Below are positions 7,823 through 27,843 of a DNA stretch of 34,769 nt, piece by piece. The notes beneath the pieces are model-generated. The model was not told the DNA's origin. It saw nothing but the letters and a program-made list of their open reading frames with translations, and made no database searches. The DNA lies in NCBI GenBank assembly GCA_964014485.1, contig CAXHAT010000078.1, positions 1 to 34,769 on the forward strand, read 5' to 3'. Position 1 is the stretch's first letter. Each line of letters begins with the position of its first letter. Source of the DNA: an uncultured Deferribacteres bacterium. GTDB lineage: Bacteria; Zhuqueibacterota; Zhuqueibacteria; Zhuqueibacterales; Geothermadaptataceae. The position numbers and the translations under genes were made by a program.

Positions 7823-8617
7823 TTACTGCCCCCGGAGAAAAAAGTAGAACCCAGCGCCAAAACTAATCTGAAAGACGCCGTAACTCGCGGCGGCGTATCG
7901 GTCGAAACGCTTGGTTCGGTTAAACAATGCGTCGGCGTGATTTGGCTCTGCGGTTGCATTATATTCGTCAAATAAATTGTCGGCTTTCTGTTTAAGCAAA
8001 ATGGCGGAGAGCGCGGAAGCGAAACTAACGCCGGCCAGTAAATAGGCGTTTCTTTTTCTCTTCGCCTTTTTGCCGCGGAGCGATTCCTGCAATCTTGCAA
8101 TTTGCGCTTCCCGGAAATCATTAATTGGCCGTAATTCCACCATTCTCAAACTCGGCGTTTCCGGCGAGCATACTATTTCGCTTGCCGTGAAGCCCGGCTT
8201 TGCAATTTGTAATGTTCGCGTGGCTGTGTCCGGGATAGAGAAAACGAAAGGCGTGGTTCCAAGCTCAAAGCCATTAGCCAAAACGCGCGCGCCAAACGGC
8301 TTGCTGCGAATTTGATAATTTCGCTGAATTTCAGCTTCAATAAAAAGCGTATCTCCAGCGGCAACCGGGATATTTTTCACCCAATCCGGAGCCGCCCAAC
8401 TCTGGCTTTCGTTCGTTCGAATGAGCACTTCAACCTCCCCCGCTCCGACGGTCAAATCTTCGACCGGCGTTCTGCCGACGGAGACACCGTTGACAAAAAC
8501 TTCGTAACCAGGGCTGGAAGTTTCGATGCTCAAACGCCCGGTTGGCTCCAAGAATTGTGCATTCATCAGATTGGAAAGCAGGAAAAACAATGGGGTAAAA
8601 ACAACGGTTTGAAACAT
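7823..8617 (-). CDS. PEGA domain-containing exported protein
   Basis: Signal peptide, two PEGA repeats (SSPGYEVFVNGVSVGRTP; SKPFGARVLANGFELGTTP...IAKPGF) and a C-terminal hydrophobic helical hairpin. Confidence 0.85.
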   Translation of the reverse strand: MFQTVVFTPLFFLLSNLMNAQFLEPTGRLSIETSSPGYEVFVNGVSVGRTPVEDLTVGAGEVEVLIRTNESQSWAAPDWVKNIPVAAGDTLFIEAEIQRNYQIRSKPFGARVLANGFELGTTPFVFSIPDTATRTLQIAKPGFTASEIVCSPETPSLRMVELRPINDFREAQIARLQESLRGKKAKRKRNAYLLAGVSFASALSAILLKQKADNLFDEYNATAEPNHADALFNRTKRFDRYAAASYGVFQISFGAGFYFFLRGQ

Positions 8618-8684
8618 GAAATCTATTGTCTACAAATTTGGCAAAGTCTAAAAACAGTTTTTATTTGAGCGCCATAAATCGACG

Positions 8685-8891
8685 CTACAGATTTTTTGAT
8701 ATTCTTACGAGAGCAAACATTGCCGCAATATGAAATACAACGACGACAAAAAAAGACAATTGCAGCATTCCCCATTCGAGCGTCAGATCAGGCTCGCCGT
8801 GCGCAATATCCGTCAAGGCGAGAAAGCTGAGAATCATTGCGATAATTGATAAAACGCCCAGAGCCAACGTGATTCCAATTGTATTTTTCAT
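8685..8891 (-). CDS. Small two-TM membrane protein, hypothetical
   Basis: 68 aa, two hydrophobic helices joined by DIAHGEPD. Co-oriented with its neighbours. Confidence 0.65.
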   Translation of the reverse strand: MKNTIGITLALGVLSIIAMILSFLALTDIAHGEPDLTLEWGMLQLSFFVVVVFHIAAMFALVRISKNL

Positions 8892-8936
8892 GGTCTTTCC
8901 GCCAGCTTCGTAGCTTTTTTCGATTTTTTGCCCGAA

Positions 8937-10118
8937 TCATTCGGAAGGCGCGAGTTTGCTGGAAGCTTCTTTAAAGAGAAAAACATGCTTGTCTTCACTG
9001 CCGACGACAACATAATCGCCGACAACAAGCGGATTGGTGCGAACGCGACCTCTGAGCTCGGCCTGCCACAGACGTTTCCCCGTTTGCAGATCAAGCGCAT
9101 AGAAATTCTTGTCCAATGAGCCGAAATAAACGACTTCGCCTAAAATAAGCGGCGAAGTGCTGATCGCTGAACCAGCCTGGAAAGACCAGAGCATTTCGCC
9201 GGTTTTGGCGTCGAGACCGTAGCATTTGCCGTCCCCGGCGCCCAAAGCCAGAACGCCGCCGCCGATGGCGGGAGTTTGGCGCACGCCGCCGCCCGCTTTC
9301 CACCGCCAGACTTCCCCGCCGTCCGCGAGACGCAGTGCACGAACCGTGCTGTCAATCGATGCGACAAATATTAATTCATTTTGAATCACAGGTGAAGCGA
9401 AAATCGCCGCCCCTCCCCCGCTCTGCCAACGCAGTTCGCCGGTCGCGCGATCCAACGCGTGAACGTTTCCGCCGTCGTCGCCGAAAATCATCAGTTTTTC
9501 AGACAAGCTTGACGAGGTGTGCGCCTGACTGTCGAATGCGTATTTCCACAAGTGTTCGCCAGTCGCCAAACTATACCGGTCGGCGTGTTTGAATCTCGCC
9601 ACGACGTAGACCGATGAATCCGCAACGACGGGTTGCCCGGAAAGCAGCCCGGCGCGCCGCTTCCAGCGGTACTTCGCGGTTTGCATGTCGTAGCACGCCA
9701 GTGTTTCGCGCCCCAATTTCACGCCCAGCAGCAGAAGCCCGTCTTTATGGGCGCTCAGAATCGGCTCAATTTTGTCCTGTAATTTAATTCTGCCGTGCGC
9801 TTTTTTCATAGCCGTGTCATAAGCGTAAATACGCCCGCGTTGCGTTCCCACGATCAAAACGTCGTTAATCGCGGTTAAATTTTGCACCGGCGCGGCATTA
9901 AAAGTGAAAGTGTTCACCAATTCCAAAGGTGGCGTGGGCCCGGTTTCACGAAAACCGGTTTGCGCCAAATCGCCGCCGGCGGTGAGCCAGCTTTTGGAGC
10001 CGCCGGGTTCTTGCAGTTGCAATTGCAGAACTTTACAGCCGCAGAGAGATGATGAGATGATTGAAAAAAGCAAAGGTAGGCAAAATATCGAAAGTTGCCG
10101 CTTATGCCGGCTTGTCAT
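8937..10118 (-). CDS. PQQ-like beta-propeller lipoprotein, BamB-like
   Basis: Repeated Trp-docking motifs (ALDRATGELRW, GLDAKTGEMLW, ALDLQTGKRLW). A start at 10118 gives MTSRHKRQ, a hydrophobic stretch and lipobox LCGC. The track's TTG start at 10202 runs through a repeat. Confidence 0.8.
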   Translation of the reverse strand: MTSRHKRQLSIFCLPLLFSIISSSLCGCKVLQLQLQEPGGSKSWLTAGGDLAQTGFRETGPTPPLELVNTFTFNAAPVQNLTAINDVLIVGTQRGRIYAYDTAMKKAHGRIKLQDKIEPILSAHKDGLLLLGVKLGRETLACYDMQTAKYRWKRRAGLLSGQPVVADSSVYVVARFKHADRYSLATGEHLWKYAFDSQAHTSSSLSEKLMIFGDDGGNVHALDRATGELRWQSGGGAAIFASPVIQNELIFVASIDSTVRALRLADGGEVWRWKAGGGVRQTPAIGGGVLALGAGDGKCYGLDAKTGEMLWSFQAGSAISTSPLILGEVVYFGSLDKNFYALDLQTGKRLWQAELRGRVRTNPLVVGDYVVVGSEDKHVFLFKEASSKLAPSE

Positions 10119-10197
10119 TTTGAAAAGCCGTAAGGCCGGCGAAGCAAAATCTTTTTTTGTCAAAAGCACTGAACTCCTGATAAAACTCAAAAATGAA
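10114..10197. repeat. Degenerate GTCATT(C/T)TGA-type palindromic element
   Basis: GTCATTTTGA...GCGAAGCAAAATCT...CTCAAAAATGAA resembles the GTCATT...AATGAC elements elsewhere in the window. Confidence 0.4.
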
Positions 10198-10236
10198 GGC
10201 AAAAAAACGCTTCTAACATGACAAACTTAGTCGATA

Positions 10237-13155
10237 CTAAAAATCCCAACCGAAGAAAATTTTGTGGAGCCAGCGGGATTCCAATTGGAAAGCGTCGCCG
10301 TCGAAGCCGCTGCGAATGTTTTGAATGTTAAATCGGCGGCCAAAATCGTAGCGCATCACGAGAAATCCGCCAATGCGAACACGCGCGCCAAAACCCGTTG
10401 CACCCAAAACGCTGTCCAACCTGCGATCCCAGGCATTGCCAACGTCAAAAAACGCCGCGCCTTGAATGGAGCGAAATCCAATGCCGCCAAAAGGAAAGTT
10501 AAGCGAGAAGCGTTCGATGAACGGGAAACGGATTTCCTGGCTGACCAAGAAAAGCTTTTTGCCCCAAATCTGCCAGCGCGGGTAGAGGCGCAAATCCCAG
10601 CTTCCGCCCATAAAAAAACGGTAACGCTCCGCGCCCTTGCCTTCGTTAATCGCCGTCCAGAGACGCGTGGCGTAGGTGATGCGCGGGGTCAGTCGGAAAT
10701 AGCGTCGGTAGTCGGCCATGATCGTATAAAAATTTGTTTTTGCGCCGCTCACATCAAGCGTGTTTCCGAGCGTCAGGCTGAAACGCGAGCCGTCCACCGG
10801 GCCGCTTGCGCCCCACAATGAATTGTCTTTCACCAGCGAGACCAAATTTGACAGCAAAAGCCCGTTCACGATGCCGCCGAAGCCAAAATCTTCGCGATTG
10901 GATTGGCGAAAATTCACGCTGGCTTCAACTCTTTTAAATACCGAGAGCGGATAGCTCAAGGAGGCAAATCCGCCGTAGCGCCGCTCAAAGAAAAAGCCGT
11001 CGGCGCGGTTGTAATAATTTCCGGCGTAATGGTAAACGCCGAAAGCCTTGTTCATACGGCTGCCAAGATCGACTTTGGTCACGGCAAAATTGAAGCTTTT
11101 CAGAAAATCGTTGCGCGTGTTGGCCGTGTTGTAAAGCAAAAAATAGTATTGCGAATTGCCAAGCATGTCGCTCATCGCCACCTGCGCGCCGCCGAAAGTG
11201 CCGAAAATCGGATCTTGCGCCACCTGGCTTTGAGCGATGTCCAGGCTGAATTTTTTCTTGTAACTGATGCTCGACGCTTCAGATTCGCCGCCCAATTTTG
11301 GCGGAACCCAAGCCAGGGGAACGCTGTGCATACTATCCGTCGCCACGACCTCAGCCTTTTCAAAAGGATCTTGCAAGCTGCGCAAGCGGCGCAATTGGAA
11401 AGAAAATCCTTCGAAGGCCGTGAAAAGCAACGCGCCGTCGGAAGTCCACGCGGGATCGAAAGCTCCGGTGATAAAATTGGTGAGTTTTTTGAGCTCGGTC
11501 GATTCCTTAATCGCGGAAGGGTATTTGTTTTTCGAACGATCCAATCCGTTCGTCTCGCTGCCGCCGTTCAAGCTTGCCACAAGATGCGGCTTTTGCTCCG
11601 GCGCCTGCATCATCCAAATATTGAAAGCGCCGTCGCGGTCGGAAGTAAAAACGATTGATCGGCCGTCCGGCGACCAGACCGGAGTCAGATCCTTCTGTTC
11701 GCCAAATGTCAGATAAGAAATGTCGCCGCTGCCGATTTGATAAAGAAAAAGATTGTACGCGCCGTCTTCGCCGCCTGTGGTTCTGTCTGAACTGAACACA
11801 ATGTAATCGCCGTTCGGCGACCAGGAAGGATCGCGATCATCGTAAAAATCGTTGGTGAGCTTTTGCAGCTCTTTGCTGACGAAATTGTAGGTGTACAGGT
11901 CGCTTCGCCCGCTGAAATCGATGCCGGTAAATACAACTTCCAGATCGTTCGGCGCCCAATTCGGCGAGTAGAGCGAGACAAGATTTTCCGGCTGGACACG
12001 CTCCAACACTTCCTTGCTGCCGATGTCGATTTTATAAATCGCATCCTTGCCCTTGCTTTTTGCAACAATGGCAAGTTCGCCGTTATTGTTCGCGTGAATT
12101 TTACTTTTGAGCAGATTGAACGACTCAAACTCCGTCGTGCGCTCGCCCTTCACAACCACGCGCAGTTCTTCCCCCGGCTTCCGAATTTCGTAAGGCATTT
12201 CGTAAACATTCGAATAGCCGACGCGATTCGATACAAATACGACGCTTTCCTTGCCATCGTACGCGCAATAGGCTGGCTTCGTGCTAATGCCTTTTTTGGT
12301 CAAACGCTCGGAGACCATGCTTGGCAGATCGCTGTCTTCAAGAATCGGATATTTTTTCTTCATCTGGTCATAAAACCAGATCTCATCAAATTCCTGATAG
12401 CTCACGCCCAAGGTTAAGCGCATGACTTCGGAAAAGCTGTCCGACATCCAGATATTTTCCATCATCTGCAGCAGCTTTTCTTCCCCAAATCGCTCCGCGA
12501 TGAAACGACAAATCGACTGGCCTTCCTTGTACATTAAAAACGAGCCGTAAATGCGATACATTTGCGTCAGCGGCACCAGGTAGCCGGAAATCGTGGCGTC
12601 TCGCAGGAACATCTCGGCTTCCGTATCCCAGCCCTCGCCCCAGTATTCCGCAAGTCCTTCCGTGAACCAAAGCGGCGGTCCCGGAGAAGTTGTTTTGCGG
12701 TGGTTTTTAAGCGTTCGCCCAACTTTGCTTCGCATAAAAACATGGACCAATTCGTGGTTGATGACATGTTTAAAATCGTGCAAAGAGCCGTTGGCGGGAA
12801 TAACGACGCGGCCTTTGAGAAATTCAAAAAAACCGCCGACGCCCGGTGAAATCAGGTTTGGAATGGTGTTGGTTTGCTGAAAATGCAGATGGTTCGAGTA
12901 AAAAATCAGGGGGATCTTTCGCAGAATGTTGTGGTCGAATTTGTCGACCAGCCGCGTGTAGGCGTCTTCCGCGTATGAAGCGCCGATTTCGGCCAGATCG
13001 CGCATCTCGGGATAGTAATAAATATCGAAATGCTCGGTCTTGAGAATTTGCCAATCAAATTTATCGTACTGGACTTTGTTACGGCCAAAATAATATTGGG
13101 AAAAAAGCGGCGTTTGACAGGCGAGAAGAAGAAAGGTTAGAAAAAGGCGCTTCAT
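10237..13155 (-). CDS. Omp85/BamA-family barrel fused to an N-terminal gluzincin (MA clan) peptidase and a PD40/TolB-like propeller, paralog 1
   Basis: Signal peptide; HELVH plus WFTEGLAEY; PD40 repeats (PSWSPNGDYIVFSSDR, PVWSPDGRSIVFTSDR); barrel motifs GGSWDLRLY and FFDVGNAW; C-terminus FFGWDF. Confidence 0.85.
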   Translation of the reverse strand: MKRLFLTFLLLACQTPLFSQYYFGRNKVQYDKFDWQILKTEHFDIYYYPEMRDLAEIGASYAEDAYTRLVDKFDHNILRKIPLIFYSNHLHFQQTNTIPNLISPGVGGFFEFLKGRVVIPANGSLHDFKHVINHELVHVFMRSKVGRTLKNHRKTTSPGPPLWFTEGLAEYWGEGWDTEAEMFLRDATISGYLVPLTQMYRIYGSFLMYKEGQSICRFIAERFGEEKLLQMMENIWMSDSFSEVMRLTLGVSYQEFDEIWFYDQMKKKYPILEDSDLPSMVSERLTKKGISTKPAYCAYDGKESVVFVSNRVGYSNVYEMPYEIRKPGEELRVVVKGERTTEFESFNLLKSKIHANNNGELAIVAKSKGKDAIYKIDIGSKEVLERVQPENLVSLYSPNWAPNDLEVVFTGIDFSGRSDLYTYNFVSKELQKLTNDFYDDRDPSWSPNGDYIVFSSDRTTGGEDGAYNLFLYQIGSGDISYLTFGEQKDLTPVWSPDGRSIVFTSDRDGAFNIWMMQAPEQKPHLVASLNGGSETNGLDRSKNKYPSAIKESTELKKLTNFITGAFDPAWTSDGALLFTAFEGFSFQLRRLRSLQDPFEKAEVVATDSMHSVPLAWVPPKLGGESEASSISYKKKFSLDIAQSQVAQDPIFGTFGGAQVAMSDMLGNSQYYFLLYNTANTRNDFLKSFNFAVTKVDLGSRMNKAFGVYHYAGNYYNRADGFFFERRYGGFASLSYPLSVFKRVEASVNFRQSNREDFGFGGIVNGLLLSNLVSLVKDNSLWGASGPVDGSRFSLTLGNTLDVSGAKTNFYTIMADYRRYFRLTPRITYATRLWTAINEGKGAERYRFFMGGSWDLRLYPRWQIWGKKLFLVSQEIRFPFIERFSLNFPFGGIGFRSIQGAAFFDVGNAWDRRLDSVLGATGFGARVRIGGFLVMRYDFGRRFNIQNIRSGFDGDAFQLESRWLHKIFFGWDF

Positions 13156-13465
13156 TCGAGAACCTCATGTTGGCGCTTTGAAATCAACGAGAAAGAGGTA
13201 AGCAAATTTCCTTCCGCAATCAAGCGAATTTTCATGATGCGACGGCGGCGAATCAGGCTGGCGTATTCTTATTTCAACACGCTGATCCGCCGATCTATTT
13301 CTCATTGATCTCCAAAATGAGCCGTCCGTGCTCGTTTTCTAAAAATACCTTTCATCCCGACAAATTCGGAGAGTTTTGAACAAAGTTTGTTTTATGGCAA
13401 GTTGTTTGGACCAGTATTCGTCAATCCTTTTCCGAGACTCAAGCTCAAACAATGCTTCATTACGG

Positions 13466-13589
13466 CTCGTTCCCAAACTCCGGCTTGGGAATGAAAATGG
13501 GCGAGAAACTCCAGTTTCGAACCAAGGAATTCACTCGAAACTGGAGTTTCGAGTACAATTGCCTTCCCAATCCAGAGATTGGGAAGGAG
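13466..13589. repeat. REPIN-like palindromic element (CTCGTTCCCAAACTCC family)
   Basis: Terminal hairpins TTCCCAA...TTGGGAA (13466-13493, 13563-13589) and an inner 16-bp IR GAAACTCCAGTTTCGA (13505-13520 / 13535-13550). Confidence 0.85.
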
Positions 13590-13707
13590 TGCTGTGGGTA
13601 TTTCAAAATCAGGTTGGCGGGAATGACGTAGAAGCAATGTTTTAATTGAGTCGCTCTTTTTTTGCCGCGCGTAACAACAGACGGCAAATCGCTTCGGCCA
13701 ATATTCG

Positions 13708-14865: not shown

Positions 14866-15139
14866 TTATTTCAATCCTTGCCTGTCGAAATTTTGGGCAA
14901 CCCTTCAGACAAAAGCGCATCGTTTTACGCTCAGCTAGTTGCTTCAAAACGCCGGCAGATCTCCTAAAATCAAGAATGCTCGTTCCTCGCCCTTAAATCC
15001 TTTGAAGCAGGCCTTGATGTATGTGCTCGTAGAAGAAGCTATTCAGGACGGCATGACGAGGCGGGCGTTCTCACCCTGAGACAATTTAAAGCGTGCAGTT
15101 CTCATATTGATACGCCAGATTTCACGATTTGCAGAAATT

Positions 15140-16048
15140 TCACGCATATAATGCATTGTGAATTCGCGAAAGCCCGGTTTTGCAATCGCTCAAGCGTCCG
15201 TCGAGAATGGCGGCGAGACGATCTGTGTTTAACGACAGGTTTTTTGGGGAAATGTGAGCGAACGGATAATCGCCCAAAGGCGTGGGTTTTATCAAGTCGT
15301 CGGGAAGATTAAAAATATCGCAGACGTGTTTGCCAAAAGTCACGCGGTCTGTTTTTTCGCCGCCTCCAACATTGACCACGCCGCAGACGCCCAGCTTTGC
15401 CAGATGTACAAGCGTTTTCGCGAGTTCAATCACTTCAACGGGAGTTCGAGTCTGGTCAAAAAACAGCGGAGCTTCCTGGCTGTTTTGCAGCCGCTGAAGC
15501 AGCCAGAGTAAAAATGACGATCCGCGCCCCTCCTGAACCGGGAAACCGTAAATCAGCGAAACACGCGTTGCCAACGCCTTGGGATTGACTTTGAGAACGC
15601 CTTGCTCGGCGGCGCGCTTGGTTTTACCGTAATGGCTTTGCGGCTTCGTCACGTCGTTCTCAGCGTAATCGCCCTTCTCGCCGTCGTATACCATGTCCGA
15701 CGAAACAAACACCATTTTACAACCGATTTCGGCGCAGACTTTGGCCAGATGAATCGAAGCTTCCGTGTTAATGATCCAAGCTTGTTTTTTATTTTTCTCA
15801 CACCATTCAACGCGGCTGTTCGCAGCGGCATGGATCAACGTCTTTGGTTGAAGTTGATGCAGAAAATCCCGCACAGCAGAAAAGTCTGTCAAGTCAAGTT
15901 GGCGATAATTGTATCGGGGATCATCAGGAGGGTTGGCATGATATAAGCCGACAACGTCTTTGGGTTCGTTTAAATGCACGAGATGCGAGCCCAAAAAACC
16001 AGAAGCGCCGGTCACGAGAAGTGGTGTATTCGAAGCTGATTTCGACAT
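15140..16048 (-). CDS. SDR oxidoreductase, dTDP-4-dehydrorhamnose reductase (RmlD)-like
   Basis: VTGASGFLG Rossmann motif, SSDMVYDG, catalytic YGKTK, DQTRTP. Confidence 0.85.
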   Translation of the reverse strand: MSKSASNTPLLVTGASGFLGSHLVHLNEPKDVVGLYHANPPDDPRYNYRQLDLTDFSAVRDFLHQLQPKTLIHAAANSRVEWCEKNKKQAWIINTEASIHLAKVCAEIGCKMVFVSSDMVYDGEKGDYAENDVTKPQSHYGKTKRAAEQGVLKVNPKALATRVSLIYGFPVQEGRGSSFLLWLLQRLQNSQEAPLFFDQTRTPVEVIELAKTLVHLAKLGVCGVVNVGGGEKTDRVTFGKHVCDIFNLPDDLIKPTPLGDYPFAHISPKNLSLNTDRLAAILDGRLSDCKTGLSRIHNALYA

Positions 16049-16087
16049 GTTCCGTCGCCATGAAAAGAAATCATTTTTGCGCCAAAA

Positions 16088-16888
16088 TCAGAATTTCAAT
16101 TTCATTTGCAAACCCCAGCCGCGCGCGCGTTCGACTTTTTGCCAGCCGAATTTATATTTCAATTCTTTCGATGTGGATTTCGCGTTGTTCTCGGATTTTC
16201 TTGCCTTCCACATCGCGTGAATCGCGCTGGTCAAGTGGTTGGTGATCACGCCTATGACAGCAAATGAGCTACGTTCCGAAGCCCTGTCGCGACGAATCCG
16301 AAGGTTTTCAAACTCGCGTCTGTTCTCCCGGTCGTTCCAGGTCCAAAATTCATCACCAGCCGGATCGCGCAAATCAAAGGTATTGCGCTGTCGCAGCTTT
16401 TCATCGTTGAAATCCCGGATCGAGTCAAAGTTACCGACGTCCACCCAGTATTGCGCCGTTTTCGCTTGCGTATTCGTTACGCCCGCATGTTGCATCGCCA
16501 AAGCGCTGAAATCGTCTTCTAGCCAATTACTGTAACGATGGAATGCGACCGCGCCGCCAAGAAACGCTATTTCAGAAAGAATAAAAGTTCGCGCCGACTT
16601 TTTTGCGCCCAGGCTATGTTGTCCCCACCCCGGCAGTAATAACGATTTGAAAAAAGCGGATTTCGAGCCGCCGCTCGCCTGAACTTTCGGCGCGTCTTCC
16701 GAAATCGCCAAAGCGCCGGAGTTCGCATTTTGCCGCAGGTTCAAACTGAACTCTGCATTTGTAAAAGCGTCAGCGGCGGTCTTCGGGTTCAAGTTCTGCG
16801 CCTGTAGCGTCGCACAGCAAAAGAGTGCGCAACAGGCTGTTAAACAACAAAAATTTGAGAGTCTGGGAGCGTTCTTATTTTTAGTCAT
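16088..16888 (-). CDS. DUF5683-like exported protein, paralog A
   Basis: Signal peptide, SLLLPGWGQ motif, NHLTSAIHA, and a C-terminal alternating strand GLQMKLKF. Confidence 0.7.
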   Translation of the reverse strand: MTKNKNAPRLSNFCCLTACCALFCCATLQAQNLNPKTAADAFTNAEFSLNLRQNANSGALAISEDAPKVQASGGSKSAFFKSLLLPGWGQHSLGAKKSARTFILSEIAFLGGAVAFHRYSNWLEDDFSALAMQHAGVTNTQAKTAQYWVDVGNFDSIRDFNDEKLRQRNTFDLRDPAGDEFWTWNDRENRREFENLRIRRDRASERSSFAVIGVITNHLTSAIHAMWKARKSENNAKSTSKELKYKFGWQKVERARGWGLQMKLKF

Positions 16889-16894
16889 AGCTTC

Positions 16895-17689
16895 CTACCA
16901 GGAAAACTTAAACGCTAATGCAGGAACCAGTTCATTTTTGTAAGGCTTCATTTCCATTCGCAAGGAAGTTTGAAGCTTTTTGTCCTGCTTCCGCGCCGTC
17001 CATGCAGCTTCAAAAGCGCTGAGCACGTGGTTGATGATAATCAGCGACGATGCGGCGCGGGCGCGCTCAAAAGCGTCGTTGCTGTCTTTCCGCATAAATG
17101 TATAATCTTCACGGTTTTGGCTGTCCGTTGCGCGGTGCGAATTGGTATCGTCCCAGCCGACGTTGAATTGATTGTACTTGCCGATATTTTCGTAATACGT
17201 CTGGTTTTTCTCTTCCGGCAAATGGTGGCTGAACGCGCCGCGCTCATATTCGCGCAACGCCGTCATATCGCTGCGATCTATCCCGCTTTCCTGCGCGATA
17301 GCATTCCAGTATGTGTCTTCATCCCAGTGCAAATCAGCGTACTCTTCAAAAACCGCTTCGAGTTCGCGGCCTTCTTTGCGCTGATCTCTGCCGTAAAGAA
17401 TAAGCCCGACTTCCGCCGCCAGAAATGCGCCGGCTCTTAAATAAGAGTGGTTATAAATTTGTCCGAGTCCCGGAACAGCGACGGAAAGCAACAACGCCTT
17501 CGGCGCACGACTGGTTGTCGTTTTTTCAGCAGACGTTTCTTGCCATGGCTCCGTTTCTATCCGGCTAAAGCTGTAATAATCGCGAAAGTCCACCGGCAAT
17601 GGTTTGACGTTTTCCGAATTTTGCGCTGCTGCTGAAGAAAAAACGAGCGAAACAGCCAAGCTGAAATATACGATTTTTCTCAATCCCAT
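16895..17689 (-). CDS. DUF5683-like exported protein, paralog B
   Basis: Start reassigned to MGLRKIVYF (17689) because the track's upstream extension reads through the MITE. Signal peptide, SVAVPGLGQIY, NHVLSAFEA, C-terminus PALAFKFSW. Confidence 0.75.
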   Translation of the reverse strand: MGLRKIVYFSLAVSLVFSSAAAQNSENVKPLPVDFRDYYSFSRIETEPWQETSAEKTTTSRAPKALLLSVAVPGLGQIYNHSYLRAGAFLAAEVGLILYGRDQRKEGRELEAVFEEYADLHWDEDTYWNAIAQESGIDRSDMTALREYERGAFSHHLPEEKNQTYYENIGKYNQFNVGWDDTNSHRATDSQNREDYTFMRKDSNDAFERARAASSLIIINHVLSAFEAAWTARKQDKKLQTSLRMEMKPYKNELVPALAFKFSW

Positions 17690-17720
17690 TTTTCTTCCCG
17701 GAACATTCTTAATTATCAGT

Positions 17721-17926
17721 TCACTAGCTGATACTTTTTCTATAGGCTTCCAACGCTGGCGAAAGAGGCCGGAATTGTCACGCTGGAAGCATCTTTTTTG
17801 ATCCAACCCTTGAACTTTTGGGCATGAGCTGTACTGGGCGATAACAAAGATTCCTCCAGAATGACAAAACGAGGCTTTTCGACGGCTCGAAAATGCAGTT
17901 TACAAAAAAGTGTCAGGTAGAGAGAA
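17721..17926. mobile_element. MITE-like non-autonomous element, copy 2
   Basis: Colinear with 5511-5714. Ends AGCTGATACTTTTTCTA / TACAAAAAAGTGTCAGGT. Flanking direct repeat (AA)TTATCAGT at 17711-17720 and 17925-17934. Confidence 0.85.
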
Positions 17927-17929
17927 TTA

Positions 17930-20900
17930 TCAGTCCAAATACCCAAAAGTAATCCCGAAATAATACCGCCACTCTTTACCGTAAGTAATCTGACGATTGC
18001 TGAATTGATCCATCCCGTAGGCTGCGTCGAAAAAGATGCGCGTCGGCAGACCGTAAAAAGAATAGGCGTTCAACCGCACTTGCGTTCCGACGGTTCGCTT
18101 GAAATTATCGAAATCCAGCTTGCCGTCAAAGGCGTCGCCGTAATCCGCGAATACGCCAAGAAAAAGCTTGTCAAATTGCACCGGCCCGACGGTTAAACCA
18201 ATTTTTTTCAAAAGCGGCACGCGGTAAGCCACGGTGCTCTGGATCAATTTGCGCCCTTCCAATGAATAGAACGGATAGCCGCGCATACCATCCAGACCGC
18301 CGCCGAAGAAATTGTAAAAACTATCGATTTCCTTGTCGATAAACCCGCCGCGGACGCGCAGCATGGCGGAATGAGACAACGAAATTCCCGGCAAGTACTG
18401 CCGCACGTCGCCGTGGAAACGATTGAAATAGTGATTATCATAAACTTCTTGCAACGTGCCGAAATTGGTGTTGACCTCAAAATCGCGGATAAATTGATTC
18501 CAGTCGCGATTGAATTCCAGCGTCACCAGTCTGCCGTTGCGCGGGCTTGCGCTGGCGGCGAAAAACCCGCCAATGCCGTTGTACGAATAGCGGAATTGCG
18601 CCGTTTTGCCAATGTGGTAGGCATATCCAAAAGAAAGCGGCTGGCGCTGCACAATCGTGTTGATTTTCGCCGTGTACCGACTGTAAATAAACGCCGCGCG
18701 CAAAGTGTGCTGCGGCCGGTACGGCAACTTATACTCAATCCCGACGTCAATTTCGCCAAGACTGTACCGGAAATCGTCTTCACCTACTGAAGTATGCTGC
18801 ACCTGGCTGTAGGCTTCCAGAAAAAGGCGCGGGCCGAATTTATAATAATCAAACAGCAGAAAAAGATCGTAATCGCGAGATCGATTTATGCCCAAGCCGC
18901 CAAACAAAAAATAGTTATTGAGAATCTCGCCGGAATTGAAGTATGTGCCCAGCTTGGTCGTGCCGTAATCACGCATCACGCGCGGGAAGAACGAAATCGG
19001 GCTGAAGACGCTTTTGTAACGCTCAGTCTCATAGTTCGGCAAATTCGTATCGTCGTAATTCGGCGATTTTATTTTGTCGACGTCATAATTCGATGCGCCG
19101 TTTCCATTCGCCCCGTCGTTGTTCTCCGCCATTTGCAGGCTCGGCGCATAGGTCAGGTAGCGCGTGTTTTTATCCAACGGCTTTGCTTGAGAAAGCTGTG
19201 CGATTTTATACCCCGACGCTTGGTAGCGTGAAAAGATCAACTCGCCCGAGTTTCGAATCGTCGGCATAAAGGCGCCGCCGAGAACGTTCGTCAATTGCGC
19301 CATCTCTCCGGTCTCAAGGTTCTTTTTGTAAATATTGAAAACACCGGTTCGATCAGAGCTAAAATAAATCGTGGCGCCGTCATCGGCGAAAATTGCGTTG
19401 CGATGATCGCCAAGACCATCGACGATCGGCGAAATATTCGACGTTTCCAAGTCAAAGACATGGATTTGACGGCCTTCGCCTTTTGTAAACGAGAACAAAA
19501 TCGTCTTGTCGTCCGGTGACCAGCGCGGGTGAAAAACTTGCTCGCCATGTTCAAAATTCGTCAGGCGCTCAATTTCTTTCGTGGCCAAATCCAACTTAGC
19601 GATGTTCTGCGTTCCGTCGCCGTTAAGGACAAAAATAACATTCTCGCCGTCCGGTGAAAACGCCGGGCTGTGGGCGCGTGCGTCTTTCGTCAGTCGCTTT
19701 TCCTTGCCGCTTTTCCGGTCAAAAGTGTAGAGATCGAAAAAGGCGGAACCGTGCCTGCTTGCGTCGCTTTTTTTGGCGTAGATAAATTGATTCTTTTCCG
19801 GCGACCAGTCAAACGGCGTTTCAACGCGCGAGCGAATGACCTCAAGCTTTTTCTTTTCCAAATTGCGTACGACCAAAGAAGTGCGCGAAAGTCCTTCCGC
19901 ACCCATCGTGGCGAGATAAGCGATTTCATTTTCACCCATCGCAAGCGGGAAAAAGTTGCCGATGCCTTTTTTCTCAATGAGCTCGCCTTCCGCCAAATTT
20001 TCGCTGATTTGCTGCGTGCGAAAGGCGTATTTCTTTTGCAGGTGCGCTTTCCATTCCTGATAGAGCGAACCGCCGGATTGTCCGGTCGCCGCGCCAATCG
20101 CGCCGCCAAACGATGTTCGCGTCAATTTTCGCATGGATCGCGAAGCGCGTTTCAGGCTGGCGTCACCGTGCTTCTTGGCCATGTACGAAACAAGCGAAAA
20201 GCCTTGGTTGTAAGCCATTTCGTTGCCGATGCTGTTTCGCCCGAAACGGCTCATTTCGTCAAAAGTGAGCAGCGAATCCCGCAGGACGGCGGAGCGCAGA
20301 AGCATGTCGCGGTGGGAATCCCAATTGTCGTAGCCGAGACCGGGAACCTGGTACTGCGCCACGCCCTCGGCAAACCAGCTTGGAATCGAGGTCATCAAAA
20401 TCGGGTAAGAAATGATGGTGTTGGGAAACCCGCGCAAAACGTCCGGGCGCGCCTCTTCTTCGTAGGCGATCCATTGAAAATAAAAGACCGGAATTTTGCG
20501 GGTGATTTTGTTGGCCGTTTGCAACTGGATCATGTGGACGAACTCATGCGTCACCACATTACGCAGCCAATCGTGCGAACCGCGCAACTCGAAATCCATG
20601 TAGGTCGCCCAGATTTCAACCTTGTTTTCAAAATAGTAAGCGGCGCCGTTGGAGTAATCGTCGTGGTCGCGAATAATGAAGTGAATATCGCCCTTCGGCT
20701 TGTAATTGTAGAGCGAAGTGATCGGCTCGTAAATATCCTCGGCAATCTTTGCCACGACCTTCCCGGTGCGCTCGGCGCCGTTATGAAAATGGATCTGGAA
20801 ATGATCGGTTTTGATGGTTCGCCACGTGAGTTCGGGGTGGCTGTTGATGTCGAGTTGGGCGAAAAGCAGGGTTGGCGTAAGAAGGAAAAACAGTACAAAG

Positions 20901-21124
20901 GGCGTCATGTATTTACCCGCCCCTTGCCCTTCCCAGGAAGGGATGACTCGCGCTCGTGTTCGCCTTGCGAACGCCCAATTCCCCTCCTGGGAGGGGTTCG
21001 GGGCGGGTTTTGAGCGTAATCGAGACTGACGCGCCGCTGCCCTGGATTCCCGCCTGAGTGGGAATGACGGAGGGAAAACGTTCCGAACTATTTTTTTAGC
21101 TTTTCTGAATCGATCCAAAATCAT
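17930..21124 (-). CDS. Omp85/BamA-family barrel fused to a gluzincin peptidase and a PD40/TolB-like propeller, paralog 2
   Basis: HEFVH plus WFAEGVAQY; PD40 repeats (PAFSPDG, PRWSPDD, YFSSDRTG); barrel motifs GGGLDGMRGY and FADYGDAF. Start is either 21124 (purine-rich RBS) or 20908 (MTPFVLFF). Confidence 0.85.
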   Translation of the reverse strand: MILDRFRKAKKIVRNVFPPSFPLRRESRAAARQSRLRSKPAPNPSQEGNWAFARRTRARVIPSWEGQGAGKYMTPFVLFFLLTPTLLFAQLDINSHPELTWRTIKTDHFQIHFHNGAERTGKVVAKIAEDIYEPITSLYNYKPKGDIHFIIRDHDDYSNGAAYYFENKVEIWATYMDFELRGSHDWLRNVVTHEFVHMIQLQTANKITRKIPVFYFQWIAYEEEARPDVLRGFPNTIISYPILMTSIPSWFAEGVAQYQVPGLGYDNWDSHRDMLLRSAVLRDSLLTFDEMSRFGRNSIGNEMAYNQGFSLVSYMAKKHGDASLKRASRSMRKLTRTSFGGAIGAATGQSGGSLYQEWKAHLQKKYAFRTQQISENLAEGELIEKKGIGNFFPLAMGENEIAYLATMGAEGLSRTSLVVRNLEKKKLEVIRSRVETPFDWSPEKNQFIYAKKSDASRHGSAFFDLYTFDRKSGKEKRLTKDARAHSPAFSPDGENVIFVLNGDGTQNIAKLDLATKEIERLTNFEHGEQVFHPRWSPDDKTILFSFTKGEGRQIHVFDLETSNISPIVDGLGDHRNAIFADDGATIYFSSDRTGVFNIYKKNLETGEMAQLTNVLGGAFMPTIRNSGELIFSRYQASGYKIAQLSQAKPLDKNTRYLTYAPSLQMAENNDGANGNGASNYDVDKIKSPNYDDTNLPNYETERYKSVFSPISFFPRVMRDYGTTKLGTYFNSGEILNNYFLFGGLGINRSRDYDLFLLFDYYKFGPRLFLEAYSQVQHTSVGEDDFRYSLGEIDVGIEYKLPYRPQHTLRAAFIYSRYTAKINTIVQRQPLSFGYAYHIGKTAQFRYSYNGIGGFFAASASPRNGRLVTLEFNRDWNQFIRDFEVNTNFGTLQEVYDNHYFNRFHGDVRQYLPGISLSHSAMLRVRGGFIDKEIDSFYNFFGGGLDGMRGYPFYSLEGRKLIQSTVAYRVPLLKKIGLTVGPVQFDKLFLGVFADYGDAFDGKLDFDNFKRTVGTQVRLNAYSFYGLPTRIFFDAAYGMDQFSNRQITYGKEWRYYFGITFGYLD
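20915..21008. repeat. Inverted pair of CCCCTCC..GGAGGGG-type REP hairpins
   Basis: ACCCGCCCCTTGCCCTTCCCAGGAAGGGA (20915-20943) versus TTCCCCTCCTGGGAGGGGTTCGGGGCGGGT (20979-21008). Confidence 0.8.
21042..21068. repeat. Half copy of the GTCATTCCCGCG/GGGAATGAC palindromic element
   Basis: CTGGATTCCCGCCTGAGTGGGAATGAC differs at one base from 33620-33646. Confidence 0.85.
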
Positions 21125-21151
21125 TCCCTTTCCTGCTCCAATTCGCCGTTT

Positions 21152-24100
21152 CTATTTTACAACGGCAATCTTAAAAATCGCAAACTCCGGCGAGCCTTCG
21201 CCGCGCGCTTCCACCCTGGCGATGTAAACGCCTTCCTGAATATTGTCCAACGGCCACGCCACTTCATTCACGGTATTGGGCGTGCTTGGGCCGGAAAATT
21301 CATCCACGAGCTCTCCAGCCAAATCGATGATCTTGATGCTCACGTCCGCCGCGCCGTTCAAGCGGTAGCGAATCGTCGTCGTTGCGCCTTCCGTGGGATT
21401 CGGATAATTATAAACTTCTTTGACCGGCAGCAAATCGTTTCCCGGCGTTTGCGGCGTTTCGCGTTCGAGATTCGCTCGTGAGTGTGCGGAGTTGCCGCCC
21501 CAGAACGGCCAAACCACGCGGCTGCCGGCATTCGCTTGCTCCAATCGAAAAACGTAAAGAAATTGATCGCCGGAAATCGCCGCCGCTTCAAGGGCGCCGT
21601 CGTCGTCAACGTCTCCGAGACCAAGGGCACTCGCATTTCTATTGCCAAGCGCGAGCGGGAAGTTCATACTTTGTCCGCCGTTTGGCTGCACGACAAAAAG
21701 ATCGCCGTTCCCATCCGGGACAAAAATTTCGACTTGCCTGTCGCCGCCCAAATCGGCAAGCACAGGCTCGATAAATTCCCCGGCGGAATCGTCGCCCACA
21801 GGTGAAAAAATGACCGGAAAATTCTCCAAAAGCGCGCCGGTGAAGTTCAGCGCCCAAACGCCTTCCCTGCTGCTGAAAATCAAGTCCTTGTAGCCGTCTG
21901 CGTCAACATCAGCCACCGCCAAGCCCGTTGCTGCGGCCAACTCTGGCCGCGAAAACATATATTTGGTTTGTCTTGCGACGTTGACGTCAACAAAGGCTAT
22001 AATTTCGACATTGCCCTCCACATCCTTGAGAACAGCCTCAAACTCGCCGTCATTTTCGAAATCGGCGATGGCAATATTTTCGATTGTCGATGTTATAAAT
22101 GCCGGAGTGAAATTTTCATCTGACGCGCTTAAGCTCGCAATTTGCGGCGACGAGCTTGATTCCGAAATGAGCGTTGTGAGCCTGTTTTCTGAAACCGCGA
22201 TTGCGACATTTGGCGCGGCCGCAACTTTCGAAAAGCTGGAAAGCGATCCGAACCCGGTTCGCAATACCCCGTTTAGAGTATACTGATTCAGTCCGCCTTC
22301 TTCGAGGGCGACCAGAATATAATCCGGCGATGGTTGAATCGTCAGAACGTTCGCCCGGCTCTCAAGCTCGGTTTGCCACAAAATATCCGGCGAGTCGTCT
22401 GCGTTTTCATCCATACTTTTGAGCGCGATAAGTTTCGTGCTCCCGGCAATAATGATCTCTTTGGCGCCGTCGCCGTCCAAATCATAAAACACCGGCGCCG
22501 CATGCAAATTCTCTCCGAGATCGAAAAAACGCGCCAGTTCGTACGCCTGCGTTTCGCCGCCAAAAGTAACCGCGTCCTCAAGAATCGTTGGGAAAAATGG
22601 CTGACCTTCCGCCGACCAGGCCAAGATGAGTCCGTCTTTTCTGGCGACGATAATTTCTTTGCCGGGAGACGCGTCGTCAATTTCTTCGATGACCGGCGGG
22701 AAAGCGCCGTCGCCAATATATTTCGGGAATCCTGAAACGACCGCCGCATTTTCATAACGGAAACGCATCACTGGCTGGCTGTCGCTGAAACCGGTCAAAC
22801 GAATGGATGTTCGTGCGCCGGAGTTGGCGTCCGAGGAAGGCAGGGTCTCCGGGCCGAAAGCGACCGGCTCGTCAGGGCGCAAAAATTGGGTGATCACCGG
22901 ATTATCGCTCCACCAGGCGTCTTCCGGCACGCCGTTTTCAGCTCCAGCTCCTGCACTGAGAAAGCCATAAACTTGTCCAATGTCCTGGGCGCCGTCCGCT
23001 TCTTCCAAATCCACGCCGCGATTTTCACGATCAGCATTGATGCGATTGTCCGCTAAATTTTCGCGAATGATTTTTTCGTCGATGTGCCAGATTAAGACGC
23101 CGGAGCCGGGCAGGCCAAAATCGTATTCGTCAACTGAAACGATGACTCCTGCGCTCTCGGCTAAAAGCTGCTCAAAGCCGTCGACCAGCTTGAACTCGAC
23201 CTTTCCGCCTGTTTCGTTTAGACCAACGGCAATCTCGTCGCCGTTGACGTCGCGCTGCCTGTTTTCAATTAAAAAATATTCGTCGGCGCTGATCGGAATT
23301 TTATAGATTCGAGGGGCGCCCGAAGCCTTTGATGCAGCGATTTGATTGAGTTCGCTTGCGGAAACCGCAACCGGCGCTTCCCACCCCATGAACACTTTTT
23401 CCCAAGCACTTGGCTCAGCCGGGAGCAGTCCTTGAAAATTCCCGGAACCTTGATCCATCAATCCCCACCTGCCTACCCCGGACGTACCATTGTCTGGATT
23501 AAACAAACTCGGCAAACCTAGCTGGAAGCCGAACATGATGGTCGCCGTACCAAGCAAGCCGATCTCAAATCCTTCCTGACTTTCGGTTTCCGGGAGGATG
23601 ATTCCGTCAGGGACGAAAAACGATCCGTTTTGCACTTCAACGCCTTGATAGGCAGGGTTGTTACCTCCAACTGACTCGCGCAAGTCGCTCAAATTGAGAA
23701 AGGCCGAAGGTACGTCATTTGGCGTCGGATCAAAATCAAAGCCCACGTCTCGCCCGACTCCGGCATGAAAAACGATGAAGCTGTCAAAGTCAGAAAATGG
23801 AACGGCGTCTTGCTGATCCGCCGCCTGAACCGCATCGCGAAAGAGCTCGCTCAAGCGTTGGTCGCTCAGAGAATCGCCGTCTTCAGGAGCGTAGTGCAGC
23901 ATGTTATTTGGCAATTGATAGGCGGCGTCTTCCGCTTCCGGATAAATTTCCCACTCGATAGAGAGCGCGTTGTTGGAGACTTTTTGATAATAATTGGCGA
24001 GCGCTTGAAGCTGTGCGTTAAAATAAGACTTGTTATGCGGCGGCGGATCGATCACCGGCTCTTCGGCGGGCGTGAGCAAAAATTTGCCGTCGCCGGTCGT

Positions 24101-24334
24101 TTCAGCTAACGAATCAAGCTGAAACTCGACGCGGATCGCCAGAATTCGAACCGTTTGATTGGCGCCGGAGAACCCGAGTCCGTCGGTTTTGGCCTGCAAA
24201 ATCTGGCGTTGCGCGGGCTGTCCGTAAATTTGGAGTTTTGCAGTCTCGTTCGACTTTTCATTCGCCCAAGCAGACGCGGCCAGCAAAATGAAAACGAATC
24301 TAAAAAAAGGTTTTATGAGAATATTGTATTTCAT
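21152..24334 (-). CDS. T9SS type A CTD protein with an M6 (immune inhibitor A)-like domain lacking the zinc motif, plus FG-GAP/VCBS repeats
   Basis: M6-like motifs FHAGVG, QLGLPSLF, GRWGLMDQG, EYFLIENRQ, GVLIWHIDE. At least five DxDxDG repeats. CTD YNYPNP...GVYIARV...KIAVVK. Start moved to MKYNIL (24334); the track's ATG at 24400 abuts a terminator hairpin. Confidence 0.8.
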   Translation of the reverse strand: MKYNILIKPFFRFVFILLAASAWANEKSNETAKLQIYGQPAQRQILQAKTDGLGFSGANQTVRILAIRVEFQLDSLAETTGDGKFLLTPAEEPVIDPPPHNKSYFNAQLQALANYYQKVSNNALSIEWEIYPEAEDAAYQLPNNMLHYAPEDGDSLSDQRLSELFRDAVQAADQQDAVPFSDFDSFIVFHAGVGRDVGFDFDPTPNDVPSAFLNLSDLRESVGGNNPAYQGVEVQNGSFFVPDGIILPETESQEGFEIGLLGTATIMFGFQLGLPSLFNPDNGTSGVGRWGLMDQGSGNFQGLLPAEPSAWEKVFMGWEAPVAVSASELNQIAASKASGAPRIYKIPISADEYFLIENRQRDVNGDEIAVGLNETGGKVEFKLVDGFEQLLAESAGVIVSVDEYDFGLPGSGVLIWHIDEKIIRENLADNRINADRENRGVDLEEADGAQDIGQVYGFLSAGAGAENGVPEDAWWSDNPVITQFLRPDEPVAFGPETLPSSDANSGARTSIRLTGFSDSQPVMRFRYENAAVVSGFPKYIGDGAFPPVIEEIDDASPGKEIIVARKDGLILAWSAEGQPFFPTILEDAVTFGGETQAYELARFFDLGENLHAAPVFYDLDGDGAKEIIIAGSTKLIALKSMDENADDSPDILWQTELESRANVLTIQPSPDYILVALEEGGLNQYTLNGVLRTGFGSLSSFSKVAAAPNVAIAVSENRLTTLISESSSSPQIASLSASDENFTPAFITSTIENIAIADFENDGEFEAVLKDVEGNVEIIAFVDVNVARQTKYMFSRPELAAATGLAVADVDADGYKDLIFSSREGVWALNFTGALLENFPVIFSPVGDDSAGEFIEPVLADLGGDRQVEIFVPDGNGDLFVVQPNGGQSMNFPLALGNRNASALGLGDVDDDGALEAAAISGDQFLYVFRLEQANAGSRVVWPFWGGNSAHSRANLERETPQTPGNDLLPVKEVYNYPNPTEGATTTIRYRLNGAADVSIKIIDLAGELVDEFSGPSTPNTVNEVAWPLDNIQEGVYIARVEARGEGSPEFAIFKIAVVK

Positions 24335-24360
24335 GCGAAGGGCGCTTTCCGGGATTATAT

Positions 24361-24398
24361 AAAAAAGGGCAAGGCGAAATTCGCTTTCACACTTGCCC
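24361..24398 (-). terminator. Intrinsic terminator downstream of porV
   Basis: Minus-strand RNA GGGCAAG-U-GUGAAA-gcgaa-UUUCGC-CUUGCCC followed by UUUUUU, about 30 nt after the porV stop. Confidence 0.75.
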
Positions 24399-24426
24399 AT
24401 GAAACTGTCGAGAAGTCAGGTGCGGA

Positions 24427-25476
24427 TCAGAAGCCGATGATAAGCGAGAAACGCATGGTGTCGCTCAGCGGGTGTCCTTCGCCTGCGGACACGTAGCCAA
24501 AATCAAAGCCATACAATGAGTACTTGATGCCCGCGCCAAAGGTGAGGTATTTGACCTTGCCGATCTTGTCATAGTGATAGCCTGTTCTGATCGCGATTAG
24601 ATTGCTGTACCAATATTCCATGCCGATGTTGGCGATGGTGCGGTCGATTTCGGTACTGAAAGGCTCGTCGGTCCAGGAACTGAAAATCGCTTTGTACCAA
24701 GAGTCGGAGGTGCCGTCTGCGTTTTTCTTGACCAAAACTTTGTCAAATTCGACGGCGACTTTCAGTTGATTAAATTCACTTTCGACAATGCCGTACGCGA
24801 AACCGAAGCGTAGATTCGTCGGCAGCGGATCGGCTTGCGCGGCGTCAATATAGGTGACTTTTGGCCCCATATTGGTGAGATTCAGCCCGAATGCGAGCCG
24901 CTTGATCAATAGATTCTTTTGCAAAATGCCTAAATCGAAAGCAACGGCATTTGCTCGCCCGTCGCCTTTTTCAGAGCCTGCGCCAACGCTGGCGAGGTTG
25001 CTTCTGATGTATTTGAGGTTCAGGCCCAAGCCTGTATTTTTGGCGAGGGTCGTGCCGTAGGAAAATGCAACGGCAAACTCGTTGGAACTAAACCGTCCGA
25101 GTTCAGTCGGATCGCTTTCGCCGGTAATAATCTGTTCGCCAAGGTTGAGGTAAGTGATCGAAGCGCCAAAAGTTCCCAAGCCTTCTTTTGGAACGACAAA
25201 ACTCGCGTAGTCATAGAACAAATCGCTGGCCAGGCTCGGCAGCCAGTTTGCGTGCATTAAGGAAATTTGTTTTTGGGTTTGAAAAGCAAGTCCGGCGGGA
25301 TTCCAATAAGTTGCGGTAGCGTCATCTGCAATGGCTACGAATGATTCTCCCATTCCAGAAGCTCTTGCCCCTGGGGTAATGAGTAAGAACGGGACTGCCG
25401 CTTCACTTTGAGCGAACAATGAATTCGTTGAGAAAATGCTGGCAAAGGCGAGAGTTATTAGAGCGGTTTTTTTCAT
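24427..25476 (-). CDS. porV: PorV/PorQ family outer-membrane protein (T9SS shuttle)
   Basis: AVPFLLITPGARASGMGE...ADDATATYWNPAGLAF, DPLPTNLRFG, YLTFGAG, HPLSDTMRFSL. GGAGG RBS upstream. Confidence 0.88.
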   Translation of the reverse strand: MKKTALITLAFASIFSTNSLFAQSEAAVPFLLITPGARASGMGESFVAIADDATATYWNPAGLAFQTQKQISLMHANWLPSLASDLFYDYASFVVPKEGLGTFGASITYLNLGEQIITGESDPTELGRFSSNEFAVAFSYGTTLAKNTGLGLNLKYIRSNLASVGAGSEKGDGRANAVAFDLGILQKNLLIKRLAFGLNLTNMGPKVTYIDAAQADPLPTNLRFGFAYGIVESEFNQLKVAVEFDKVLVKKNADGTSDSWYKAIFSSWTDEPFSTEIDRTIANIGMEYWYSNLIAIRTGYHYDKIGKVKYLTFGAGIKYSLYGFDFGYVSAGEGHPLSDTMRFSLIIGF

Positions 25477-25977: not shown

Positions 25978-26358
25978 TCAGCCGATCAATTCTTTGTATT
26001 TTTCGTGCGTCAGCAAAGCGTCCATTTCGCCTGCGTCACTTATTTTAACCTTAATCATCCATCCCGCACCATACGGCTCCGAATTGACGTTTTCCGGATT
26101 CTCTTCGAGATCTTCGTTGACTTCAACGACCTCGCCGCTGACCGGGGCAAATAAGTCGGAGACCGCTTTCACGGCTTCTACCGAACCAAAAGCTTCGTCC
26201 TTGGAAATTGCGTCTCCGGTTTCCGGCAATTCAACAAAGACGATGTCGCCAAGCTCGCTCTGGGCGTGATCAGTTATACCAATCGTCGCAATATCGCCTT
26301 CGACGGAAAGCCACTCATGTTCTTCAGAATATTTGAGGTTTTCGGGGATGCTGCTCAT
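25978..26358 (-). CDS. gcvH: Glycine cleavage system H protein
   Basis: [26 protein letters not shown], lipoyl site [24 protein letters not shown] before MSSIPE (26358). Confidence 0.96.
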
Positions 26359-26420
26359 GCTTTTCTCCTGGTTCAATTGGTTCAGCAAGATCGTCGGTTA
26401 AGCGTCAGACTCATTTTCGC

Positions 26421-27764: not shown

Positions 27765-27843
27765 ACTGAAATGTTCCTTTGAGTGCTGGGGGATATTCTA
27801 CAACTTTGAATGTTGATCGATAGCGAAAACCGTAAGTCTCAAA

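Follow-up and report, generated by a model that had tools for sequence, protein, structure and literature searches.

Proteins joining a TolB-like propeller to an Omp85 barrel were catalogued in 2014 as the WD40-Omp85 subfamily and likened to a fusion of BamA with BamB (Heinz and Lithgow 2014, PMC4104836), and WD40 and peptidase domains were mentioned in a 2024 paper (PMC11358297). [quoted passage not shown] In Bacteroidia, cargo release needs the GldLM motor. The locus considered here belongs to an uncultured Deferribacteres bacterium of the Zhuqueibacterota (assembly GCA_964014485.1, contig CAXHAT010000078.1, positions 1 to 34,769, hereafter the window). Its row of eleven co-oriented genes is composed of two separately conserved modules. 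Module A is led by porV and contains genes for an inactivated M6-like metalloprotease (M6i), a peptidase-propeller-Omp85 protein (P2) and two DUF5683-type proteins, and module B groups a second such barrel protein (P1) with a lipoprotein and a PEGA protein; the three other genes are passengers. A link of module A to the T9SS is considered likely. We lean slightly towards reading it, quality-control mechanism included, as a T9SS accessory for surface processing or quality control in lineages where GldKLMN was not found.

An earlier note, made from the letters alone, had described the co-oriented run and assigned its domains. Both hold: the eleven genes are all present between 7823 and 25476, every one on the minus strand, and the domain assignments were borne out:

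24427..25476, minus strand: porV (module A), the probable main PorV ortholog of the genome
21152..24334 (open reading frame opens at 24400), minus strand: M6i (module A), dead M6-like domain, FG-GAP propeller and type A T9SS C-terminal domain (CTD)
17930..20908 (open reading frame opens at 21124), minus strand: P2 (module A), zinc peptidase, TolB-like propeller and 16-stranded Omp85 barrel
16895..17689, minus strand: DUF5683a (module A), PF18935, with signal peptide, hydrophobic helices and C-terminal beta-hairpin
16088..16888, minus strand: DUF5683b (module A), paralog of DUF5683a (HHalign 99.8%)
15140..16048, minus strand: RmlD-like NAD(P)-dependent reductase (passenger), PF04321, 173 bits
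13708..14865, minus strand: AgmX/TonB-like transducer (passenger), NF033768, one membrane helix
10237..13155, minus strand: P1 (module B), zinc peptidase, propeller and Omp85 barrel, no hairpin insert
8937..10118, minus strand: PQQ-type beta-propeller lipoprotein, BamB-shaped (module B), invariant lipobox Cys
8685..8891, minus strand: 68-aa two-helix membrane protein (passenger), without Pfam match
7823..8617, minus strand: exported PEGA-domain protein (module B), PF08308, C-terminal hydrophobic helices

Start sites were judged likely at 24334 (M6i), 20908 (P2), 17689 (DUF5683a) and 10118 (PQQ lipoprotein). The gene called an SDR in the earlier note is an RmlD-like reductase.

Orthologs of P1, M6i and P2 were sought in 41 genomes, this one included, and strong ones were found in 38, 39 and 38, respectively. 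Twenty P1 loci and twenty M6i/P2 loci were compared, all picked for long contigs; the latter were picked with both genes on one contig, so that their flanking genes, and not the M6i-P2 adjacency itself, provide the test. The order porV-M6i-P2-DUF5683a, with porV first, was kept in all 20 KSB1 loci. DUF5683b came directly next in 18 of them and, by way of overlapping loci (L019, L020), in the remaining two; it was seen in KSB1 only and in none of the 20 Bacteroidota loci described below. An unselected sample of 81 KSB1 genomes displayed both M6i and P2 in 75 cases, at most 5 kb apart in 69 and on separate contigs in six, P2 being inherited as a single-copy, near-universal gene (76/81). The P2 query used there and in a contig scan included the upstream extension and lacked the final 70 residues of the protein. 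Named near relatives of P2 carried mostly KSB1, Zhuqueibacterota or Calditrichaeota labels, and the host was accordingly counted with KSB1. Two weak propeller matches from the contig scan served solely as entry to a sample of 251 Bacteroidota genomes. Twenty Bacteroidota loci were picked from 112 module-positive genomes, for long contigs across the score range. Here, porU directly preceded porV in 16, porV preceded M6i in 19 and the order M6i-P2-DUF5683a was encountered in 17; in the other three, P2 was sited elsewhere in the genome yet retained. The conserved gene order among relatives that the earlier note had counted on was thus found, in 20/20 KSB1 and 17/20 Bacteroidota loci. In the KSB1 loci seen, porU no longer stood beside porV.

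Module B was recovered in the same way. The P1-PQQ pair was present in all 20 KSB1 P1 loci and the PEGA gene in 18; in Bacteroidota, the PQQ gene adjoined P1 in 11 of the 12 best loci, and the start of a PEGA gene was detectable in seven of these 12 short loci.

That all eleven genes encode one non-canonical PorV/Omp85 machine powered by AgmX, as the earlier note had proposed for the 18-kb run, appears very improbable. Co-orientation pleads for it, and so does the proximity of the modules, P1 and P2 lying within 15 kb on one contig in this genome and in four of 40 relatives; these belong to two families, and AgmX stands between the modules in this genome (G000), G003 and G008. The distributions of P1 and P2 differ, however: they were detected in 54 and 112 of the 251 Bacteroidota genomes, respectively, 45 being common to both and nine displaying P1 only. 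The two proteins are 22% identical and formed old separate clades, each spanning both phyla, in a tree obtained by a quick method and including two long branches. AgmX and the reductase were mostly located elsewhere, AgmX being found in six of 20 P1 loci and in one of 20 module A loci, and the reductase in three of 20 loci of each KSB1 set. The 68-aa gene would find no space in most relatives, where the PQQ gene directly adjoins the PEGA gene. The run itself is interrupted by a gap of 552 bp between AgmX and P1, other gaps measuring 240-274 bp. Energising of the row by its own AgmX gene, also put forward in the earlier note, was not sustained either, as this gene displays the scattered distribution just given and has no exbD neighbour.

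The window PorV scored 321 bits with NF033709 and 247.9 bits with NF033710 (cut-off 250), the best of 16 matches to the latter in the genome, the next one reaching 106.7; in the Bacteroidota loci its orthologs sit after porU. The genome is 97% complete and carries sprA on contig C104 and porU on contig C135, so the absence of both genes from the window, correctly reported before, holds for the window only. It also includes 13 Omp85 matches, among them an 811-aa bamA-type gene located between tamB-like and skp/fabZ-like genes (read by eye). A stand-alone exporter, as previously envisaged, is not supported, given these sprA, porU and bamA-type genes and the rank of the window porV as the best PorV match of the genome. 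CTD-like matches amounted to well over 40. GldL, GldM and GldN were not found in this 97% complete genome, and for GldK there were only partial matches, which scored far under the cut-off; the same models detected all four in controls, very divergent homologs being possible. GldM exceeded its cut-off in none of 42 KSB1 genomes and none of 24 module-positive Bacteroidota genomes, versus all ten GldN-positive controls. With SprA, PorU and PorV present and neither the GldLM motor nor the GldKN ring found, the T9SS of the host is unusual, as the earlier note had suspected.

In the Bacteroidota sample, SprA was present in 198 genomes and GldN in 63. M6i and P2 occurred in an identical set of 112 genomes, 111 of them with SprA and none with GldN; the pair was thus found in 0/63 GldN-positive genomes, in 111/136 SprA-positive, GldN-negative genomes and in 1/53 SprA-negative genomes. 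Related genomes are not independent, and these counts may reflect few gains or losses. The two genes were retained together when unlinked, being about 860 kb apart in genome G114. Gene order and co-occurrence therefore tied the porV half of the run to type IX secretion, as the earlier note had suggested. A better correspondence of the module with PorU than with SprA was rejected.

It has to be considered whether the order was kept solely because essential envelope genes are regulated together, with P2 and DUF5683 forming a unit of their own that has no mechanistic link to the T9SS. The genes gcvH, accC, accB and efp also stand beside porV in most KSB1 loci, and long-lived synteny alone therefore proves little. 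These housekeeping neighbours are absent from the Bacteroidota loci, where M6i-P2-DUF5683 persists; P2 is missing together with SprA in 52 of 53 genomes, and is kept with M6i when unlinked. This explanation was therefore judged rather improbable.

It also seems unlikely, if slightly less so, that module A replaces the missing GldKLMN function by releasing or recycling cargo-loaded PorV from SprA, either by proteolysis or by transmitting force from an ExbBD/TonB-like motor whose genes lie elsewhere. Release of cargo depends on the motor in Flavobacterium (PMC10994853), module A and GldN never coincided (0/63), the host lacks detectable GldK, L, M and N in spite of its large CTD-like repertoire, and ExbD-AgmX pairs exist on other contigs. 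Against such a replacement, 23 genomes that have SprA and PorU lack both GldN and the module, no inner-membrane motor part is included in module A, and the exclusion of GldN tracks taxonomy.

M6i belongs to NCBIfam NF052323, 'T9SS-dependent M6-like inactivated metalloprotease' (622 bits, cut-off 600), a name that gives no function. It also matched TIGR04183 (29 bits, cut-off 23), displayed conserved tails such as KIAVVK and started with a signal peptide (read by eye); judged from its sequence, it thus combines the signal peptide and C-terminal sorting domain of type A T9SS cargo. The zinc motif HExxH, expected before LGLP, was missing in all 29 aligned orthologs. The dead domain is nevertheless the best-conserved part of the protein (0.55 versus 0.32 for the propeller), which suggests a binding role. 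A function of M6i as substitute for PorZ was unsupported, and a PorZ-N-like match is present elsewhere in the genome.

Only one of the two DUF5683-type genes, DUF5683a, matched PF18935 directly, DUF5683b being assigned by its homology to the former. The DUF5683a model is helical with a C-terminal beta-hairpin, and the final residue was W or F in 114 of 114 sequences; this aromatic-ended hairpin would resemble a beta-signal. Comparison of the model with the PDB gave no match at E <= 0.001.

P1 and P2 both matched Peptidase_MA_2 and PD40. The AlphaFold model of P2 (pLDDT 92, pTM 0.90) is composed of a peptidase, a TolB-like propeller and 16 C-terminal barrel strands; it aligned with BamA at Z 21-23, and its propeller with TolB at Z 25-26. 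The zinc peptidase motif comprises H121, E122, H125 and E181, and this motif (HExxH and downstream Glu) was intact in 231 out of 232 family members. A sequence search of the PDB with the peptidase domain gave no match. No POTRA domain was matched, the N-terminal 580 residues being peptidase and propeller, and the Omp85 barrel motifs (loop-6 xRGY and FxDxG) are present. Given Omp85 topology, peptidase and propeller would be periplasmic.

P2 differs from P1 by some 30 additional residues between HExxH and the third ligand. This insert (residues 137-175) forms a hairpin with strands 141-149 and 162-171; it was present in 217 of the 232 family members and absent from P1. Strand 1 of many closed BamA barrels aligned on residues 139-141 of the P2 model, and that of several open or hybrid-barrel BamA states on residues 636-639, as if the first hairpin strand wedged the seam of the model. 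Mean-field covariation of hairpin and barrel was computed from 232 sequences with an effective depth of 182, an initial run having been weak (depth 104); model and covariation draw on overlapping alignments. The top pair in the region tested linked hairpin residue 159 to barrel residue 704 (z 11.8), and 166-697 shares its antiparallel register. The corresponding ladder scored 5.1; strands that are true neighbours gave 2.4-6.7, and those that are not gave no more than 2.9. An 18-stranded seam insertion, pairing hairpin strand 1 with barrel strand 16 and hairpin strand 2 with barrel strand 1, received no covariation support (1.4 and 1.2).

Several described systems resemble these features. Like WD40-Omp85 proteins, P2 and P1 have a propeller in place of POTRA and an Omp85 barrel, 16-stranded in the P2 model. 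The literature consulted on that class mentions neither a function nor partner genes, and neither a link to the T9SS nor a plug hairpin; here, two old clades each have fixed partners. In the BamADGHMP complex of Bacteroidota, an Omp85 barrel stands beside a 14-stranded FadL-type barrel with surface subunits, and a BamP loop threads the lumen to the lateral seam of Flavobacterium BamA (PMC12611786). The P2 hairpin is predicted to thread lumen to seam like that loop; P2 differs from BamADGHMP in lacking POTRA, in having the plug in its own chain and in carrying a protease, and a separate bamA exists in the genome. BepA of Escherichia coli is a periplasmic zinc peptidase which, at the Omp85 seam, promotes assembly of clients or degrades them (PMC8423444); BepA is a free M48 protein, in contrast to the Peptidase_MA_2 domain of P2, which is fused to the barrel. 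As regards the T9SS complex itself, module A has in common with it what is probably the main PorV ortholog, a cargo protein with a type A CTD and, in 16 of 20 Bacteroidota loci, the pair porU-porV ahead of it, whereas M6i, P2 and DUF5683 are not among its components in the passages of PMC10994853 and PMC5445135 that were consulted, occur in no GldN-positive genome and are found in a host without detectable GldKLMN.

P2 and P1 might instead be nutrient-capture proteases, peptides entering the barrel once the plug moves and being cut by the gated peptidase, while M6i would bind peptides at the surface and merely need PorV. Propeller-gated peptidases are a known design (tricorn, S9 matches), the conservation of the dead M6 domain resembles that of a binding domain, and the genome encodes five paralogs. 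Several observations reduce this to a small probability: P2 is single-copy and near-universal (76/81 KSB1), no peptide transporter or TonB receptor is conserved nearby, the module sits behind porU-porV, and the loop-6 xRGY motif of Omp85 proteins is retained.

Under the favoured reading of module A as a T9SS accessory, SprA would export M6i via its tail, and PorV would hold or deliver it at the surface as a non-catalytic scaffold, in parallel to PorU and PorZ, which stay on PorV and PorQ. P2 would be placed in the outer membrane, its propeller and peptidase being periplasmic. The hairpin inserted between its zinc ligands is predicted to ascend the lateral seam next to strand 1 and to return through the lumen along strand 5. 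The barrel would thus be plugged at rest, with gate opening coupled to the active site. In that case, P2 would represent a dedicated assembly and quality-control station, comparable to BamA, BamB and BepA in one chain. It would use the C-terminal beta-hairpin of DUF5683 to assemble or hold that protein, and would cleave T9SS-related envelope proteins that are stalled or mis-assembled. For other clients, similar work would fall to module B.

Several points weigh against this reading. As many as 25 of the 136 SprA-positive, GldN-negative genomes lacked module A, and 23 of these 25 retained PorU; the module is therefore usual in such genomes and not obligatory. Few independent events underlie the co-occurrence, since a single class probably accounts for the GldN-positive genomes and a single group for most of those without SprA. 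Modules A and B are close together in two families (G000, G003, G008; G031, G036), perhaps as a remnant of linkage in an ancestor, and unrelated genes (CreD, small barrels) were inserted inside module A in some genomes. The genome possesses five peptidase-propeller-barrels, three of them without T9SS neighbours; the fold is therefore not T9SS-specific. Concerning the plug, pairs 144-644 and 137-637 point to barrel strand 1 yet fall within the null range (ladder 2.6-2.7 for the seam-side signal 144-644), and several hybrid-state BamA chains start on other P2 residues. That the hairpin enters its own barrel is nonetheless fairly probable, its position having been derived from alignment ranges and covariation.

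It is further possible, if doubtful, that outside Bacteroidia the T9SS is a distinct version without GldKLMN, endowed with its own outer-membrane station of PorV, dead-protease scaffold, DUF5683 and a self-plugged Omp85 protease that is switched on by gate opening. In whole related phyla, SprA, PorU, PorV and many cargo proteins are maintained although neither motor nor ring is detectable, and module A names three uncharacterised proteins that track this version of the T9SS gene for gene. It also provides the WD40-Omp85 class, which has no function in the literature available here, with a set of partners and a structural prediction, namely a self-plugged seam coupled to a zinc site. If true, a self-plugging, gate-coupled Omp85 protease would be the first function for this class.

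The barrel class (PMC4104836) and the NCBIfam name of M6i were already known. The division of the run into two units, the exact co-distribution of M6i and P2 with respect to SprA, GldN and PorU, and the predicted plug are new here. No paper on module A, module B or the M6i-P2 pairing was found in the literature searched; the 2022 Omp85 review of Doyle and Bernstein, the 2013 survey of T9SS distribution and the supplementary tables of PMC4104836 and PMC12611786 fell outside its scope and may bear on novelty. The accessible parts of PMC13067283, PMC11205867 and PMC5445135 contained nothing on either module.

Module B likely encodes an independent unit of barrel, lipoprotein and membrane protein. 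P1 passed PF01103 with 27.3 bits, and 16 of 21 orthologs matched this family. Its residues H134, E135, H138 and E166 correspond to a zinc motif that was intact in 21/21, and the loop-6 motif read LRLY in 15/21 and LRGY in 6/21. The lipobox Cys of the PQQ lipoprotein was invariant in 18 of 18 sequences. In its PQQ propeller and lipobox this protein resembles BamB, but by the curated cut-off it is not BamB (135.6 with TIGR03300, cut-off 285.2); its neighbour P1 has no POTRA. A DUF5683-like nature of the PEGA tail was rejected (HHalign 0.5%).

The three further peptidase-propeller-barrels lie at C4:25081-28248, C10:67013-69934 and C11:50881-53898, all with intact HExxH..E motifs, and the paralog on C10 is followed by a gene for a CTD cargo. 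None of the three has a DUF5683 gene next to it, and the notion that each barrel of this kind has such a neighbour was rejected. The window AgmX gene scored 54.5 bits for the AgmX/PglI C-terminal domain (cut-off 40), and its lack of an exbD neighbour distinguishes it from two AgmX/TonB-like paralogs located after exbD-type genes elsewhere in the genome (G000:C369:169-1819, in L082; G000:C51, in L083:1486-3265). As no GldLM is detectable in the genome, these ExbD-AgmX pairs are candidate energisers of another kind for its T9SS.

Other T9SS-related observations concern the host and its relatives. Four PorP/SprF-like barrels of this genome form part of longer fusion proteins. Besides porU, a divergent second gene for a PorU-like C25 protein lies at G000:C8:23-4759 (1588-aa frame, 273 bits, below cut-off), and PorU-like C25 paralogs also occur in many non-GldN Bacteroidota genomes. 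The 25 genomes with SprA (PorU in 23) and without GldN and module A, which include G101, G106, G116, G134, G143, G147 and G170, displayed a more reduced T9SS. A small gene was present between M6i and P2 in three genomes (L044:4053-4733, L039:3420-4154, L032:10044-10685), and the two such inserts that were scanned gave weak outer-membrane barrel matches.

Promoter and terminator scans of the window were close to chance (21 versus 15.1 +/- 4.2 and 26 versus 34.0 +/- 6.1), with the exception of a promoter-like site (10/12) at 25780-25752, upstream of porV. Imperfect repeats of the type of KSB1 intergenic elements occupy 13390-13700, in the gap between AgmX and P1 (read by eye). The genes efp-accB-accC-gcvH (25978-28936) precede porV in most KSB1 loci, often with gcvP interposed. 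A degenerate histidine-kinase-like gene (7053-7820) begins 2 bp past the PEGA gene and is placed alike in five family-level relatives. At positions 2-3426, cut by the contig end, an HpnN-like RND transporter gene is succeeded by one for a substrate-binding-like protein. At 30390-34306, a TonB-dependent receptor has a small gene rich in Cys and His upstream of it and an acidic lipoprotein downstream, which suggests metal uptake.

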